Shown piece after piece: positions 4,202 to 20,000 of a stretch of DNA of 20,000 bases (positions are counted from its first letter, which is position 1; every line of letters begins with the position of its first letter). The notes under the pieces were generated by a model. That model worked only from the letters and a program-made list of their open reading frames with translations, was not told the origin of the DNA and did not search any database. Location: positions 168,902 to 188,901 of the forward strand of contig NOWV01000148.1 of assembly GCA_003344405.1 (NCBI GenBank). The letters run 5' to 3'. The DNA is from Trichoplax sp. H2 (Eukaryota). Position numbers and translations under genes: made by a program.

Positions 4202-5263
4202 CTATGTAGTATTTAATCTGCCTCTTGATGTAACAATATCGCTACTAGGTGCAACCCCACGTCTTTTAGATTCAAAATTAGCACTTAAAACCATGAATAG
4301 AACTGGATTAACAGCCGCGTTCAGATATAGTAACAGGACCAAAGTAGGAAATAAATCAGTTTCTTCTGGCTTATAGTTTGGTATAAATTGGCCAAGAATA
4401 GAAAATATCATGATAGGCAAATATGTAAATACATTGGTAAATACAACAGAAGCCAATATAAGACTAACACGTTTTTCAATGCGAGAAGATGAATTAGATT
4501 TGAATAATGATCTGGATTGCTTCAATTTCATGCATATTATAATATACAATATCATTGATGTAGTATGCATGCTAAAGCCCAAAAATAATTCAATATACAA
4601 AACTGCTAGTACCATAAAGCCCTTTGAGGAATCGGTATTACAGAATTGTCCAAGTATGTCAAAACGAGTTGAGTGATGTACAGTTGCACCATGCGCTGAA
4701 AGTAGGCCAATCGTGAAAGCAACAATAAAACCTAAAAGCCAAAATATAGTAGCGACGACACGAGCATCTTTGATTGTAATTTTGCGACGACTATGGGGAA
4801 ATACAACCAAGATATATCGATCAACTGCTACTATAAACGTCATTGAGATTGATATAACTAGGGACAGTTGGCTCAGAATTCTTTCCATCGTACATGTAGG
4901 GCTAATTATCCACTCATTTTCAATACTGGAATAATTAGGGTATGGTCCATACTTATTTCGATAGTGGTTTGTGTAAGAGCTATCGCTAATAGCCAAAATT
5001 ACTAAGTATAAACTGCTGACCAAGTCACCAAGGCTTAAATTAAACAGCAAAAAGATGGATGGATTTCGACTAATGAGAAGTCTATAGCGATTATTCACTA
5101 TTAAATATTTTGTAAAAATTGTCTTAGATTTATGGTAATTTAGTAGAAGTAATTCCGCAATAATGATAATATTGCAGGGCAAACTAACTAAACCTAACGA
5201 CCAACATAGTCCACGAACAATATTATAGTGAAGAAATACTGAATAAGAACTGTAATTCAACAT
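4202..5263 (-). CDS. Intronless class A (rhodopsin-like) GPCR, 353 aa, with an LGR/RXFP/GRL101-like 7TM domain
   Basis: Uninterrupted ORF from ATG (5263) to TAG (4202) with seven hydrophobic segments. Motifs: TM1 N (PCNIII), TM2 NLSLGDL..LYL.ILA..D, ECL1 W..S..C, TM3 AVDRY..VVFP, TM4 W, ECL2 C, TM6 TNVFTYLP, TM7 NAAVNPVLF. The TM2/ECL1/TM6 pattern is typical of glycoprotein-hormone/relaxin-receptor-like 7TM domains. Confidence 0.92.
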   Translation of the reverse strand: MLNYSSYSVFLHYNIVRGLCWSLGLVSLPCNIIIIAELLLLNYHKSKTIFTKYLIVNNRYRLLISRNPSIFLLFNLSLGDLVSSLYLVILAISDSSYTNHYRNKYGPYPNYSSIENEWIISPTCTMERILSQLSLVISISMTFIVAVDRYILVVFPHSRRKITIKDARVVATIFWLLGFIVAFTIGLLSAHGATVHHSTRFDILGQFCNTDSSKGFMVLAVLYIELFLGFSMHTTSMILYIIICMKLKQSRSLFKSNSSSRIEKRVSLILASVVFTNVFTYLPIMIFSILGQFIPNYKPEETDLFPTLVLLLYLNAAVNPVLFMVLSANFESKRRGVAPSSDIVTSRGRLNTT

Positions 5264-5414
5264 TTTATCGTTATCGTTATTAAACTACTTATCGTTATGT
5301 TGATATTGCAGAAGATAGACAATGGTAAAACGATCAAACCAAAGTATTGCGTATCGAAAATGTCGTAAGTTAAGTTCTTTTCGGTAAATATAAAACAGTC
5401 CAGGATCAGAACAC

Positions 5415-5832
5415 TGTAAGACAGTGTAATATTGTATTCTAAGTTGATGATATATTTAGTAATGTCTACCGTAGGTGTTGTGTTCAACATGTGATAGATA
5501 TACTCGTTAGAAGCTTAAGTATTAAATATAGCTAGCTTAGTAGCTGTAATCCTTTTGAAGAGGAGCGCTACAGTGCTCACACTAGAGCTTCACATGAAAG
5601 GTGTAAACTAGCCTGTATTTGAGATGCTAATACTGAAGTGTGTAGTAAGTAAGGTGCTAAGACTGTAAACGCGGAAAGGTATATAAGCGAGTAGTTTAGT
5701 ATAGTAAGCTAGTTCTTTCTCGTTAGAGGTCCTCAGCTAATTGATTACGTTGTATCTTCATAAAGGAGGTTTTGTTCAATAAATCTTAATTTACTAAAGT
5801 TTTTTGAAGATTCTTGATCTATCAACCTCACA
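5415..5832 (+). mobile_element. Solo LTR of an LTR retrotransposon (418 bp, 5-bp target-site duplication)
   Basis: Starts TGTAAG and ends CTCACA (TG...CA, imperfect terminal inverted repeat). Flanked by AACAC at 5410-5414 and 5833-5837. The empty site with a single AACAC is at 6932-6936 in the other copy. Internal TATATAA at 5680-5686 and AATAAA at 5778-5783. No PBS, PPT or coding sequence is adjacent. Confidence 0.9.
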
Positions 5833-5905
5833 AACACCCAGCGCAAAATTCAGATAGATTGTCAAGTATCATATAATAAAATCTGACGGTAATCTTAATC
5901 ACTAT

Positions 5906-5923
5906 TAGTAGTAGTAGTAGTAG
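5906..5923. repeat. (TAG)6 microsatellite (also at 7005-7022 in copy B)
   Basis: Direct reading: tagtagtagtagtagtag. Confidence 0.85.
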
Positions 5924-6433
5924 CAGGTCAGCTATTTTATTAATGAGAAAGAAAAAAGGTGATGCCAATTTCGGAACTGTGATACATAAACAAAATTGCA
6001 AATAGATGCTTACTTCAAAGCTGTTACTCTTCAGATTTTTATGCTATAAATCGGACTGTATAAAATTTCAATCCAGGATTAATGCTTTTGATTCAATCAA
6101 GTCGACGTGTATTAAATCGACATACTGTAATAAGAAAAAGGTTGATAGATAAGATCTATAAATTAACAACAAATATCTGAATTGTCACTTTTTACTATAG
6201 CAACCTATAACTCACAATTTTGAATCTTTTTTCCAAACTGAATAGGCTATTCCAATAATTAATGAATACTTAATCAATTCATAAATTTATAAAAGGATGC
6301 TATTAATAATTAAAGAATAAAGACGTAAATTCTATTATTAATTAAATACTACCTAAGCTATTACTCTGAATTATCATCTTACATAATGACCTTTCCTAAG
6401 ATTGAATGTATTAACGGTAAATGCATAGAAATA

Positions 6434-6453
6434 NNNNNNNNNNNNNNNNNNNN
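6434..6453. other. Assembly gap (20 N)
   Basis: Run of N exactly at the junction of the two duplicated copies. Confidence 1.
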
Positions 6454-6785
6454 TAATTAGGGTATGGTCCATACTTATTTCGATAGTGGTTTGTGTAAGA
6501 GCTATCGCTAATAGCCAAAATTACTAAGTATAAACTGCTGACCAAGTCACCAAGGCTTAAATTAAACAGCAAAAAGATGGATGGATTTCGACTAATGAGA
6601 AATCTATAGCGATTATTCACTATTAAATTTTTTGTAAAAATTGTCTTAGATTTATGGTAATTTAGTAGAAGTAATTCCGCAATAATGATAATATTGCAGG
6701 GCAAACTAACTAAACCTAACGACCAACATAGTCCACGAACAATATTATAGTGAAGAAATACTGAATAAGAACTGTAATTCAACAT
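6454..6785 (-). CDS. Partial second copy (N-terminal ~110 codons) of the GPCR, cut by the gap; probably the other allele
   Basis: Identical to the N-terminus of 4202-5263 except TKY>TKN and YRL>YRF. Runs into the N gap. Confidence 0.7.
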
Positions 6786-7532
6786 TTTATCGTTATCGTT
6801 ATTAAACTACTTATCGTTATGTTGATATTGCAGAAGATAGACAATGGTAAAACGATCAAACCAAAGTATTGCGTATCGAAAATGTCGTAAGTTAAGTTTT
6901 TTTCGGTAAATATAAAACAGTCCAGGATCAGAACACCCAGCGCAAAATTCAGATAGATTGTCAAGTATCATATAATAAAATCTAACGATAATCTTAATCA
7001 CTATTAGTAGTAGTAGTAGTAGCAGGTCAGCTATTTTATTAATGAGAAAGAAAAAAGGTGATGCCAATTTCGGAACTGTGATACATAAACAAAATTGCAA
7101 ATAGATGCTTACTTCAAAGCTGTTACTCTTCAGATTTTTATGCTATAAATCGGACTGTATAAAATTTCAATCCAGGATTAATGCTTTTGATTCAATCAAG
7201 TCGACGTGTATTAAATCGACATACTGTAATAAGAAAAAGGTTGATAGATAAGATCTATAAATTAACAACAAATATCTGAATTGTCACTTTTTACTATAGC
7301 AACCTATAACTCACAATTTTGAATCTTTTTTCCAAACTGAATAGGCTATTCCAATAATTAATGAATACTTAATCAATTCATAAATTTATAAAAGGATGCT
7401 ATTAATAATTAAAGAATAAAGACGTAAATTCTATTATTAATTAAATACTACCTAAGCTATTACTCTGAATTATCATCTTACATAATGACCTTTCCTAAGA
7501 TTGAATGTATTAACGGTAAATGCATAGAAATA
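6454..7532. repeat. Copy B of the duplication (no LTR; contains the empty insertion site)
   Basis: Begins immediately after the gap and matches 4932-5414 joined to 5838-6433. Confidence 0.95.
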
Positions 7533-9342: not shown

Positions 9343-12300
9343 ATGATGCTCTCACGAAAACGTGAAGACAATATATGCACCCAGATGGATGCAGTAGAAA
9401 AGAAAGGCAGCGATGATGGTAATTTATATCATAAGAAGTATTTTAAGCACTAGAGCAATGCTTGTATCATAATGCAGTTGTTAGAATTCAGTGAGCACAT
9501 GAAGAATGATGTTACGGTATTTGCTCTTACCTGAGCGAGACTGGATACCGTAATTTACTAAGAATAGTCACTAGTATAGTATTTTTAAAGTAGACAAATA
9601 GCAATGATCTTTAAAATTCGTAGAATAGATTGTAGCTATTTACTTAATTGTCATTTCTTTTTTAAAACTTGCTAAAGAGCTCCTTCACAACAGTATAGAC
9701 CAATGTAAGGAATTTGTAGAATACGTATGATTTTTTTTATGATAATACGTGTTTTGCCATAGATTTAAAGTACATTTTGACATATAAATATTTTGAGCTG
9801 CAAAATAGTTCTATTTGAATGTTATTGCTAACTAACACTAAAATTGAATGTTATCCTCATTTCAGACCATCTTCAAAAGTTTACGATTGCTGACGTTATC
9901 GAACACATTGGCTTTGGGCCTTTTCAAATACGGAGTCTTTTCGTTATAGGATTCATATGGGTATGTCATAAATGACGATCATAGATGCTATAAAAATATG
10001 TAAATTTTAGTGAACCAACCAAACTATTAATTGCTGAGATAACGCACGATTATTTTAGACTTTTCTAGCCTTCTCTAAGTACAACTGCGCTATATTACCG
10101 AACTACATCACCTTTTATATGCTAAGTAGAGCGGCTGATAGTATTAGACTATCCAACTATCATTCTATAGTATTTCAAATTAAACTAGCAATCAAACTCA
10201 CACGATAAAATAAATTTTAGCCTAGACTCCCGAAAACTGCTAAATTAATAGTAAGTATAGTTTAGCTTTAAACTGTACATTTCTAGAGTATACACTTAGA
10301 CAAAATAAGAATCCCAGGTCAAATGTTTTGGGTTCATACTTTACGAAATTACTAAGTAACATTAATTTCTACATTAATTAATGATCAAAATCGGTACACA
10401 TGAATTCTATTAACTAAATATATCGCTAGAATCACAAAATCATAATATCTAATTCTTAATAAAAATTATGCTACGGATTATTTTAAATTCTAATCTGGAT
10501 AAAGCAGTCGGGTTTACACAATACTAAGATACTAAGTAAAATCTTCTATTATAATTAACCAAATAAATCATATTTTTTAAAGCTAGAATACTCATCTTGA
10601 TATAAAAACTAAGCTAAAGTAACTACAATACAAGAACTTGAAGAAAAATTTTAAAAGTTAGCCCTCATTACAGATAGGTAGAATTTACTCTTTTCCATTA
10701 TTACTTTTATGTTGAGACATCTTATTTAATTGTAAACCCGAGTTATATCAAAGTAATCAAGATAAAACTGTTGTGACTTGAAGCTTTGTCAATGAGTATT
10801 TGAGTACAATAAATAAAAATCTGTTGGGCGATTATAATTACTACATCCGCTTTATGAATGACATAGTTTTAGTTTGCTTAATAATTCGGACTTGAGAAAA
10901 AATTACCGAATAAATTTTGTTAGATTATGTTAATCCCCTATATTTTATATACAGCGTGTCATCAATAGCTTCTGCCATCAGCTTAATGTTAAATATTATT
11001 ATAAAATTTTACTGATCTAACATTAGCTTTGATAGCTGATTAACGGTGATAATAGAGGCTAATACTATTAATTGTGTATTTATGGATTCGTTAATAAATT
11101 ATTGTTTATTATTCAATAAGTTGTAATCTGCATGAACATTTTAAAGAAGTGATATAACAAAATTTACGTATCTTTTATTTAGTTAACTAGTATGATTCGA
11201 TTCTCAATGTTATCCATACTTGGGCCGCTGTTAGCCTGTGACTGGGGAATTACAAAGTCCGAGGAAGCCTTAATAAACGCTGTATGTAAAATTAGCTAAA
11301 TTTGACGGGATTAAGACATTATGGTTTAGAGACTTTAGCTATTTACAGTAGTAACATGGAGTAAGGTAAAGCTGGAAAGTCGAATAATTTGTTATATTTA
11401 CATTAGAGCATAATTGTGTGGTGACTATTATAATAAAAGGTTGTAATCATACCATTAAGAGGTTATAAAATTTATTCATAACATATTAACTTCCTTTAAA
11501 AATAGGAAATTAAAATTTATTAATAAGGTTAGTTTTTGTTGTCACTTTTTTGTATTTTTTACCTCATTAGTTGTCATTTGCCGGCGATATTTTGGGATCT
11601 ATTTATTTTGGATGGTTTTGTGATCGTTATGGTCGAAAATTGGTACTACTAGAGCTCAGATATAGCAAATTTAATAGCTCGTATATTGCAGCGCTAAATT
11701 CTCATAACATTATTACATTGTCAGTAGTGGTTGAAATTTTCAGCTACCTTTTTCTTCCCTACAATTAACATTGATAAAATAGAATTTAATGTTCTTTAAT
11801 AATCTAGGGCGTTATTTTCGGAATCTTAAGTACTAGCTATATGTCAATGATCTCAGGCTTATCATCTGGGATTGAAATGATGCTGTTATTGCGATTTGCG
11901 TGTGGATTCACAGAGGGTGCCACCATTCAGTGGTGATCTCATGTCTTCCTCAAATTAATGTTTTTTAATGTGCTGTAAATTCTGGGGTTGTGAAATTTGA
12001 AAGTACCGTATTACCTGATGATAATGCAGAACTTTATTGTATAAAAAAATCCAAGAAGTGAAATTTTTTAATAAGTAAAGACCTTCTATTAGCAAGAAAC
12101 GCGCAGTAGCTATTTCAGATAATTTAGTAGCTGTATTGAATTCGGTATTAAAATCAACTTATATTATTTCCCGATTTAGTGTGACAATGGTAATTGAAAT
12201 AGTTCCAGCCAAAGCTAGAGCTAAAACGATAGCTTCTTTACGAGTAAGTTATGGTAGCTTTAAGAATGATGAATTTAATAATGTTAGATATTGCACTGAC

Positions 12301-14583
12301 TTAGGAAATTGTTAACAGTTTGTTTTATTAATAGGCATTCAATTTCATCGGTATAGCAGTGGAAGGCATAATAGCTTATCTTTTCCTATGCAAGTTTGAC
12401 TGGCGTATGCTAATTTATGCTACAGCAGTTCTCTATTTAATATCCATGCCTTTAACCTCGGTAGTAATATAGAAACGTTACGGTCGTTAGCTGTCTAATT
12501 ATTAAAAGAAAGATAATGAAAGGCCACAAACATTTTTGTTTATGATACAAATTTATTACCAAAAATACTAATTTATGTATGCAGATCCTTGTAGAATCTC
12601 CACGCTATTTGCTATTACATGGATTCTATAAAGAAGCAAGTAATATCATGAAAAATGCCGCAAAGCTGAATAATAAACCCGCACCAGAAGGAAAGCTAGT
12701 TGCTTCAGTTAAAGTATGAATTGTAATAGCCAAACAGTATATTTGTATGCATAGTGAAAATAGATTTGGTGATAGGCTGTCTAATAACCTAATATTACCT
12801 GTCATCTCTATCTTAAAGATAGAAAAATAAATTATATCTTGATCACGTTTCTTTTAATTTTGAAGATTAAATCATGTTTCATAAAACCTTTTAACTTAGA
12901 TAAGTGGCGGAACTGTTAAGGATCTATTTAAGCCTGCTTATAGAAGAATAACATTAATAGTTTGGCTTATAACGTAAATGCAATATTATAAAATTTATAA
13001 TATACGTAGTAGAATGGCATATTTCCATGTTTATCAAGGCGTTAACTACTAAGCACGTTCCTCAGATTTACCATTACCACAATGTATTTTGGCACCATCT
13101 GGATGGTTCCTTTATTAGTAAATGTCGATCGATGCAGTGAGTAATTAAGCAATACGATCGAATATTCCATATAAAGATATACCGCACTATTTCCCTTTAG
13201 AGATGCTTTAGCTAGAAGAAACTATGCATTCGTCTATCTTTAGTACTGAAAATTAATTTTTACTGCAGATAATTTAGCCGACTTTTTAAGGCTGAATAGT
13301 CCGATTTAGAATACCAGTATCAATAAAATTACTATAAATGAACGTAAGTTTATTTGCTATACTGTAGGTCTAGCTAAAGGACCAGCGAGGTATGCTTGTC
13401 GATGCAAGGTAATAAAAACCGCTAATATCATCGGAATTATTACTGGAGGTCTTGGAGAGCCAATAGGTATATTTAATGTTAAAAATTGATTTTTTCCCTA
13501 TAATTTAGCGCATGAGTAAAAGTTTCATTTTATAATATTTTAATACGTACAGAGAGTATAAATTTTGCGCATTTCTAATATTTTTACCAAAAGTATTCTA
13601 TATAGAAGTCAAATAGATTGGATATTAATTATATAGTCAATAGAACGGAAAAATTTGAAGGGTGACTGAATATAATTTTCGTTAAACGTTTCCTTTCAAT
13701 TGAAAATTTTAGGAGCCTTGATAGCTTTTACTTTGATTGACAGGCTCGGAAGAAAGAGATCTTTAATCTTGGGATTTTTTGTAACGGGAATCTCTTTCGT
13801 TCTACTTATGCTATGTACCAGTAGGCATGTTAATGGATCTTATAGAATCCGTCAAATCATTGCTGTAACATACTCTACAATTGTTAAATTTTTCTTGCTT
13901 TACTATGATTAGGTTACGTCACTATCATCACAAACTCAAAGTCGCGTGATAATTTCAATTTAATATCCTTGGCTTTGTTCTGTTATAGAGGAATTAGATA
14001 CGCTTTGATCTTGTTAATAAGATCCTGCAATTGCTATTTACTTGATATATCTTATATATATATTTCCGAAGTGAGTGATTTCGAGGAATTAATTTCAGTA
14101 ATCATCACTTTTGTGATCACAGGAACTATTAACATTTACTTATTATGAACTTAGATCTATCCTAACAAATTCCGAGCAACAGGTCTAGGTACCGCTAGAG
14201 CATTCGCTGGGTTGGGTAATGTATTATCATCTTTTATTGGCCAAGTAAGTTAGATCAAATGGTACCAAATTCAGTGTTGAAGAATTTTTCTAACTAAATA
14301 GGAGTATAGTTTTTTTAGCTAAATGTAAGTTTGCGGCCAATTACGGATATTGGCCGCAACAGTAATATGCTATATGAAATTTATGTAATCTGAAACATAA
14401 AATAAGATTTGTTCATCATACCAAATAAATTTTAAATGATGGAATCACTTCATATCTTAGGCACTATTTTTAGCATCTGATATTGCAGCTTTAGCCACTT
14501 TTACTGGATTATCACTAGTAGGGCTTATGTGCAGCTTAACGATTACCGTTGAAACAAAAGGACGCTTGCTAAAAGTCAGTTAA
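9343..14583 (+). CDS. SVOP: SVOP-like (synaptic vesicle 2-related) major facilitator superfamily transporter, 15 coding exons, ~478 aa
   Basis: Exons: 9343-9418 (tentative first exon), 9866-9960, 11183-11281, 11571-11642, 11808-11932, 12180-12243, 12335-12460, 12585-12713, 12900-12973, 13066-13136, 13368-13466, 13713-13824, 13989-14070, 14155-14244, 14461-14574. All phases chain into 476 codons with no stop. Motifs: FTIADVIEHIGFGPFQ, CDRYGRK, E..PAKARA, WR, ESPRYL, DLFKP.YRR.T, IDRLGRK, EIYPNKFRATGLG, ETKGR. The C-terminus is uncertain: read-through VS* at 14583 or a spliced ETD* at 14704-14715. The symbol means family-level similarity, not proven orthology. Confidence 0.9.
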
Positions 14584-15935: not shown

Positions 15936-16594
15936 ATTAGTCAAATATACCTTAATATTACTGACAAGATCAAGTACTTGTTTTTTAACGAATGCCTTTG
16001 GGCTATATATTACCGAAGTGTGTAATCAACTTGTTGACACTAATGATATAAAAGGTTTTTTAAAACTTTATAAATAATCATAACTTGTCTAATTCTAATT
16101 TAGATCTACCGAACCAAATTTAGAGCAATTGCTCTTGCAGCTGCTTGATCTATTGGTGGTCTAGGCATGTTCTATCGTCATTTCTTGCTCAGGTCTAGTC
16201 TATGAAAATTGCTTTATTCTATTTTTTCTTTTTGAACGTGAAATGATCAGACAGGATTACTGTAAATCGATGTATACAATGCATGACGCCTTTGCGGTCG
16301 TTTTCAGGTAATTGCTTTCTTTTTAGGTACTATTTACTAATTCAGACATCACGGCGTTAGCTACTTTTATAGGATTCGGAGTTTTACCAATAGTTTGTAG
16401 CATGATGACGTATTGAGACCAAAGGAACCTTGCTCAAAGTAAGTCCTATGCAGAGTAGGAATTTTATTTAGAATTACGTTCAACTATCAACAAGATGAGC
16501 TACTTGTGATACTAATTCGTCCGTAATTTCTTTGAAGGATTTAAAGATACGGACTGAAAACGAAAATGGAGATACGAATTATACTGTCTTCTAG
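15936..16594 (+). pseudogene. SVOP-like pseudogene fragment (3' exons only)
   Basis: Exons: 15936-16017 (LVKYTLILLTRSSTCFLTNAFGLYITE); 16104-16192 (IYRTKFRAIALAAA*, TGA at 16146-16148, 89 nt vs 90 nt in the intact gene); 16327-16438 (VLFTNSDITALATFIGF...IETKGTLLK, 112 nt vs 114 nt); tentative last exon 16538-16594. Intron positions match the upstream gene. No 5' exons were recognised in 14.7-15.9 kb. Confidence 0.85.
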
Positions 16595-18708: not shown

Positions 18709-19292
18709 ATGCCCTTCGCTAAAGATGAAGAGAAAATAGTGCTTCGGTGGCCAAAACAAAATAACGAAGGTAGCTTTATTAATAAGAATTATCGTTCTGT
18801 ATTGCCAAATATTTGATTAGGACTGAGGCTGAGGTTGAAACAATTTAAAAAGCGATACTAGTATGATATATTTGACATATATGATGTCGCTAGAACAGAT
18901 TGAATTAGTAAATTCCTAATTTTGTTTTCTTCTCCTTTGATTTGATTATGTTAACTAAGAAGGATGTTCTACAGCATTTTAGCAAAACTTTATAGAAAGT
19001 CAACTTATACAGATTGACATATTAACACTGTTTAATTATAATACAAGCCAACTCATTTAGTTAATAAAATCATGTTTATAACGTATTCGTGCCGATATTG
19101 CAAGTTGATGCTATACAGAGTTAGTTTGTTAGCGAATTTTGATAATCACTAAACGTTTGCAGTTCTATAGTAAATACTTTTACGACGATTTCTCTTCCTT
19201 TAGATCAAACTTTTACAATTTCTGAAGCTATAGAATCGATCGGCTTTGGGCGATTTCAGTGGCGATGTCTTTCAGTTATAGGATTTATATTG
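18709..19292 (+). CDS. 5' part of a third SVOP-like MFS transporter paralog (continues beyond the window)
   Basis: Exon 19204-19292 (QTFTISEAIESIGFGRFQWRCLSVIGFIL) has canonical splice sites and the same phases as exon 9866-9960. The candidate first exon 18709-18769 (MPFAKDEEKIVLRWPKQNNE, phase 1) is tentative. Confidence 0.75.
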
Positions 19293-20000
19293 GTAAATGT
19301 GTATGAATAATTGATTCACTTTGGCATTATTTTCAACTAATTCAGCAAAACGGGAAGTAGAATTGATAATGTTGATCGATATGTCTGTTAAAAGAGAGTA
19401 GATGTCTAATACATTATCAATGCTATCTTTTAGTTTACATTAATTTATCTAATCTGTTTTAATTTAAGCTGTATTCTTACATTTGATAATAAAGTAGTGT
19501 CACAAAACAGCTTTGCAACAAGATAACGCAATATACGATCAATAAGTCTATTCCTTGAACCACATATCAAGGAACGATATCTGCACTATCACAAACACTT
19601 TTGCTCTACTAGCAGACTACACAAAGACTTAAACGCCTCGTATTTTACGTTAAACACTAAGTTGGACAATTCTTTATTTCACAATATATATTGCATTTAT
19701 ATACTACTCCTCAATAGTTCATGAGTCATAGTTAATACAATTAACATTGGAATCATTTACTGAATTAGATATTAATTTTAGCTACTGCTCTCTTAATGCA
19801 GACAACAGTATTTACGAACATAGACATGTAATGACTATTACAGAATAGTCAGATTACGATATGTCCTATCACGGAACATTTCCATGATAATTTACAGTCT
19901 ACTATAAGTAAATTACAATCACAATGATTCGAACTGTAAGCAGATGATTTGCATTCCCTATTATAACTATTAATTTCAGTATGTGTATAAGTGTTACTGT

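Follow-up and report, generated by a model that had tools for sequence, protein, structure and literature searches.

The window, which is the whole stretch of 20,000 nucleotides of Trichoplax sp. H2 DNA that was analysed, carries an intronless rhodopsin-family GPCR gene of 353 codons on the minus strand (4205–5263, with the stop codon at 4202–4204; Pfam 7tm_1, E = 8.6e-19). The best named relative is a G-protein coupled receptor GRL101-like protein of Trichoplax sp. H2, which is 58% identical along the full length (100%) of the query. An LTR-like element of 418 bp, assembled as a solo LTR, is located upstream of this gene on the plus strand at 5415–5832. It starts with TGTAAG and ends with CTCACA. 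The distance between the element and the ATG of the GPCR gene is 151 nt, and the element is oriented away from the gene. A second copy of GPCR codons 1–110 plus two bases of codon 111 is found on the minus strand at 6454–6785, as a product of the apparent duplication that is described below.

The duplicated DNA was divided into two copies. Copy A (4932–6433, 1502 bp) contains the element and forms the 3' end of the first contig, where it stops on the last base before a scaffold gap. Copy B (6454–7532, 1079 bp) is free of the element and forms the 5' end of the second contig, its first base being the one that directly follows the gap. The gap itself consists of 20 N at 6434–6453 and is the sole N run in the window. 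The inner ends of the two copies are the two edges of this gap, 0 bp off both contig ends, and the sequence to the left of copy A and to the right of copy B is unique. In unit coordinates, no base is lost across the gap. The 20-N run was absent from the earlier note on this DNA, and it alters the reading of the duplicated locus.

A global alignment of the two copies gave one 423-bp indel and five mismatches over 1079 aligned positions, corresponding to 99.5% identity or a difference of 0.46%. The earlier note had counted about five differing positions over surroundings of about 1.08 kb, in agreement with this alignment. The mismatch sites are 5080/6602 and 5107/6629, at which copy B shows L62F and Y53N relative to the GPCR sequence of copy A, together with 5377/6899, 5885/6984 and 5889/6988. 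The two sites that fall within the duplicated portion of the GPCR coding sequence are thus both nonsynonymous and can serve as allele tags. The first difference between the copies lies 148 nt into the second contig, about one read length of the sequencing project (150 nt), and the distance from the last difference to the end of the first contig is 544 nt (5889 vs 6433), which is near the insert size of 500 bp. A (TAG)6 microsatellite has equal length in copy A (5906–5923) and copy B (7005–7022), and a TTATCG repeat of 2.7 units and 11-mer repeats also show no difference between the two copies.

The right-hand part of the window contains a multi-exon SV2-related/SVOP-like MFS transporter gene on the plus strand (9832–14580). 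Its exon at 13676–13909 matches a Synaptic vesicle 2-related protein of Trichoplax sp. H2 (P0007, 302 aa), of which the exons map to 12187–14580 with up to 100% identity. Hoilungia hongkongensis was rejected as the source of the DNA, since its published assembly is free of gaps (PMC6067683) and P0007 of Trichoplax sp. H2 maps onto the window. The P0007 model begins mid-protein at 12187 and leaves out the upstream frames at 9832–9972, which by eye only resembles the SVOP N-terminus, and at 11571–11765, which has a weak Sugar_tr match at profile positions 56–80. It also runs through 13909–14145, a segment of intronic appearance. The P0007 model seems to be partial or mis-predicted. A second SVOP-like first exon is seen on the plus strand at 19146–19307, resembling the frame at 9832–9972 by eye (unaligned), and a weak match to the P0007 C-terminus with 33% identity is present at 16207–16444, also on the plus strand. 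These two segments suggest tandem paralogues of the SVOP-like transporter. At the other end of the window, a 92-codon plus-strand frame (3–278) is open at the window's 5' end. Its GC content is 49% vs about 30% for the window, and Pfam gave no match to it; the frame is possibly an exon belonging to a gene that extends beyond the window.

The 418-bp element and its class

The earlier note had described a TGT...ACA element of 418 bp, bordered by a perfect 5-bp duplication of AACAC and cleanly missing from copy B. The element was confirmed to the base. Direct reading and the alignment of the two copies placed the left target-site duplication at 5410–5414 and the right one at 5833–5837, and the alignment placed the empty (pre-integration) site, a single AACAC, at 6932–6936 in copy B, which is read as allele B. 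The 423-bp indel is equal to the 418-bp element plus one additional AACAC. Since the outer bases flanking the two AACAC repeats differ, the target-site duplication is exactly 5 bp. Both ends of the element match TGTNR: it starts with TGTAA, and its last five bases are TCACA, the reverse complement of which is TGTGA. The GC content of the element is 34% vs 29% for the flanks. The TATA box and the polyadenylation-type hexamer that had been noted were also located, as TATATAAG at 5680 and AATAAA at 5778. Both are on the plus strand and 98 nt apart, the AATAAA lies 55 nt from the 3' end, and the plus orientation of the element was set by the order of these two motifs.

The chance level of each feature was estimated. 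Identical 5-mers at the spacing of the element occur at 61 of 19545 window positions. The chance expectation is about 2.5e-4 for TGT...ACA ends and about 8e-5 for TGTNR at both ends. By chance, 418 nt of sequence should hold about one TATA and about one AATAAA; therefore, each of them alone is weak evidence. Of 5160 random background segments, 108 (2.1%) showed the ordered layout near the 3' end with the 98-nt spacing, and this arrangement gives modest support to a U3-R-U5 layout.

Several other kinds of element were sought in and around these coordinates. The best local alignment between the first 60 nt of the element and the reverse complement of its last 60 nt scored 8, whereas the shuffled sequences averaged 9.7. 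No terminal inverted repeat rises above the shuffled controls, and the reading as a MITE was therefore dropped. A TRIM, or miniature LTR retrotransposon, needs two short direct LTRs around a primer-binding site and a polypurine tract, and the self-comparison of the element contained no internal direct repeat longer than 11 nt. An ncRNA or SINE origin was dropped because Rfam gave no match, either over the whole window at the gathering threshold or over 5300–5950 at E ≤ 1, and ARAGORN returned no tRNA. A second copy or fragment of the element was not detected in the 20-kb window, in which blastn with a word size of 7 gave only chance-level matches of at most 44 nt (E ≥ 0.08). A domain search of 113 ORFs of at least 40 aa from the window gave matches to MFS/Sugar_tr only, and no reverse transcriptase, integrase, gag or protease; this set covered the frames free of X other than the GPCR frame, which was scanned separately. 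The first 25 nt of the element had no match in a prokaryote genome collection, which is uninformative here as that collection is without placozoan DNA.

The LTR-type reading is based on the TGTNR termini, the target-site duplication, the empty site, and the absence of terminal inverted repeats and of any coding remnant. Solo LTRs are described as having TG...CA ends, which take the form TGTNR in Gypsy (PMC2836005), and the termini found here are of this form. The 5-bp AACAC duplication with its matching empty site falls within the 4–6 bp expected of a solo LTR. Judged from its anatomy, the insertion is very probably a genuine LTR-type insertion polymorphism, for which an integrase would have been responsible. 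An LTR insertion on one allele is an ordinary kind of feature. As for the superfamily, Gypsy supplies 53 of the 56 LTR-class fragments tabulated for T. adhaerens (PMC2871265, Table 2). A priori, Gypsy is therefore more likely than BEL/Pao or Copia.

Two explanations without an LTR have to be weighed against this reading. A non-autonomous cut-and-paste DNA transposon, moved by an integrase-like DDE transposase of the Ginger/TDD type, would share a part of the anatomy, in that Ginger termini likewise are TGTNR and 5-bp duplications are made by TDD-4/5 (PMC2836005). Moreover, of the DNA transposons reported for Trichoplax, Ginger makes up the largest group, with 0.3% (PMC6057997). However, Ginger elements are described with inverted repeats of 40–270 bp, whereas the element here has no inverted repeat above shuffled controls, and metazoan Ginger elements make 4-bp duplications at CCGG/CCGT or RTATAY targets, whereas the duplication here is 5 bp and reads AACAC (PMC2836005 for Ginger). 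Among the Ginger/TDD elements of the same source, 5-bp duplications are given only for TDD-4/5 of Dictyostelium. A transposon of this type is thus very unlikely. The filled and empty sites could also be obtained with no mobile element at all, if allele B had lost 423 bp of intergenic DNA through a microhomology-mediated deletion between two AACAC repeats, as a deletion between 5-bp direct repeats would leave the identical pattern. On the other hand, such a deletion makes it a coincidence, at a level of about 8e-5, that the lost segment starts with TGTAA and ends with TCACA. The same segment would also happen to hold the ordered TATATAAG...AATAAA pair, found in only 2.1% of random segments, and to have a GC content above that of its flanks. 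The deletion is considered highly improbable.

Two alleles or a tandem duplication

The published properties of the source genome bear on how copies A and B should be read. According to the genome report, the H2 assembly was made from 150-nt paired reads with 500-bp inserts by MaSuRCA and then AlignGraph, one parameter was altered "to better merge haplotypes", and the N total is only 44.8 kb (PMC6057997). The animals are described there as clonal, and their SNP and indel rates are given as 1% and 0.1%, respectively; the 0.46% difference between the copies is within this allelic range. Kelley and Salzberg define "duplicated overlapping contigs" as adjacent contigs with an end alignment of more than 300 bp and more than 95% identity that reaches the contig ends, and they attribute them to two contigs that carry one heterozygous stretch from different haplotypes (PMC2864568). 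At the present locus, the end alignment is 1079 bp with 99.5% identity plus one indel, and it lies 0 bp from both contig ends. Gap-separated near-identical neighbours are also a documented sign of false heterotype duplication (PMC9516828, PMC2864568), for which the signs at the read level are haploid depth, discordant mate pairs and haplotype-specific k-mers (PMC9516828).

As the inner ends of the copies meet the scaffold gap to the base, the copies read as unmerged haplotypes. The earlier note had treated them as two genomic copies of the locus, and this is not supported, since the coincidence of the copy ends with the gap is a sign of haplotypes that were left unmerged. From the geometry of the gap and from what is published on the assembly, we infer that copies A and B are alleles, copy A being the filled haplotype and copy B the empty one. 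The locus is probably a single one with two alleles, of which only one has the LTR-type insertion, at 151 nt upstream of the intronless GPCR gene, and the apparent duplication would be an assembly artefact. The alternative is a real and recent tandem duplication of a unit of about 1.08 kb, comprising the 5' end of the GPCR gene and its upstream DNA, with a later insertion of the LTR into one of the copies. Two in-register copies with 99.5% identity on one scaffold are what such a duplication would give, and repeats, including real tandem duplications, can break assemblies at unit boundaries. However, both inner ends fall exactly at the gap with nothing missing in unit coordinates; if the array were real, reads crossing the junction should have closed the gap. 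In addition, the layout is the one documented for false heterotype duplication (PMC2864568, PMC9516828), and the source genome is reported as a 1% heterozygous genome assembled from short reads (PMC6057997). A real tandem duplication is accordingly improbable.

The course of events under the two-allele reading can be proposed as follows. On one allele, a retroviral-type integrase would have placed an LTR retrotransposon 151 nt ahead of the GPCR start codon and duplicated AACAC in the process. A single 418-bp LTR is now assembled at this site, and it would be a solo LTR if LTR-LTR recombination excised the interior. The other allele would retain the intact AACAC target. The resulting heterozygous indel of 423 bp may have been beyond the overlap-error tolerance of the assembler, so that the alleles stayed unmerged. 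One contig would then have followed the filled allele and broken off, and its successor would have begun on the empty allele. Finally, the scaffolder would have ordered the two contigs with a minimal gap of 20 N, giving the appearance of a tandem duplication of 1.1–1.5 kb. Celera-type scaffolders may write a minimum gap of 20 N where the gap estimate is negative or smaller than 20. Support for 20 N as the minimum gap of Celera Assembler or MaSuRCA was not found in the literature.

If it is kept, the probably artefactual duplication of the GPCR 5' end would inflate the counts of duplications and gene fragments in the H2 assembly. For the gene itself, the filled allele shifts the DNA beyond –146 of the GPCR a further 423 bp away. 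Any effect of the insertion on GPCR transcription is speculative. As Y53N and L62F tag the two alleles, allele-specific RNA-seq could probe the influence of the insertion on GPCR expression.

Solo status and timing of the insertion

Whether the element is solo or full-length is a question independent of that of the duplication. The assembled sequence runs continuously from flank to LTR to flank without a gap, and the element is taken as a putative solo LTR. Solo LTRs usually outnumber full elements. Instead, the filled allele could hold a full-length heterozygous LTR retrotransposon, the identical 418-bp LTRs of which were collapsed while its interior was dropped by the assembler. With the reported 150-nt reads and 500-bp inserts (PMC6057997), an assembler could go from flank to LTR to flank and skip the interior. 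Two LTRs on one haplotype would have approximately the depth of a diploid unique sequence, so a collapse would presumably escape flagging, and the locus has already been mis-assembled at the gap. These points are opposed by the gap-free continuity of the assembled sequence and by published surveys, in which reverse transcriptase, integrase or transposase ORFs are few (nine in H2) and the repeats are for the most part small fragments (PMC6057997). A collapsed full-length element is unlikely.

The earlier note had also concluded from the roughly five differences that both the insertion and the formation of the solo LTR were recent. This conclusion is not upheld. If copies A and B are alleles, the five differences gauge the divergence of the haplotypes, and the value of 0.46% is an allelic divergence rather than the time since a duplication; therefore, recency is not established. 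The insertion would have taken place on one haplotype lineage after its split from the other, so that at least one LTR family would have moved since that split. The two Trichoplax haplotypes may be old, because an interbreeding origin followed by long clonal propagation is argued for Trichoplax by Kamm et al. (PMC6057997).

In published surveys, the transposons of Trichoplax are described as scarce and inactive (PMC2871265, PMC6057997), and T. adhaerens is entered by Wang et al. with "Active TE: None" and a TE content of 0.13% (PMC2871265). This view lowers the prior for a polymorphic insertion. In the literature searched, no report of a solo LTR or of a polymorphic LTR insertion in placozoans was found. 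A bolder reading, which we regard as rather unlikely, is that the filled allele bears witness to the movement of an LTR family in the Trichoplax lineage after the haplotypes had diverged, and that the element might even be full-length and heterozygous but concealed by the collapse of its LTRs. If true, either case would contradict the published view of inactive placozoan transposons. The insertion would also provide a marker with which the history of H1 and H2, both clonal and hybrid, could be dated. According to Kamm et al., most loci have alleles in common between H1 and H2 (PMC6057997). Therefore, genotyping of this site could place the insertion relative to the proposed common hybrid origin of the two.

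Comparison with known systems

The target duplications of Mutator transposons are about 9 bp in length, whereas that of the element here is 5 bp. The Mutator insertions in placozoan promoters described by Kim et al. (2025) resemble the present locus in that a transposable element is situated just upstream of a placozoan gene. However, they are DNA transposons recognised by their terminal inverted repeats (PMC12221973), and the element here is without such repeats. Ginger1 and Ginger2 (TDD) share with it the TGTNR termini and a short target duplication of the integrase type (PMC2836005).

The layout around the gap is comparable to false heterotype duplication as described by Kelley and Salzberg (2010) and Ko et al. 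(2022), the common features being a heterozygous region, contig ends separated by a gap, and an indel too large to be merged; the likeness here is one of contig geometry. For the element itself, the comparison is with a solo LTR of the Ty3/Gypsy type. It differs from that type in that no full-length partner, primer-binding site or polypurine tract is seen and in being a single copy so far. In contrast, its TGTNR...YNACA ends, its 5-bp target-site duplication, its size within the range of LTRs and the matching empty allele are those of a Ty3/Gypsy solo LTR, as are the lack of coding content and the position of the TATA motif upstream of AATAAA on one strand.
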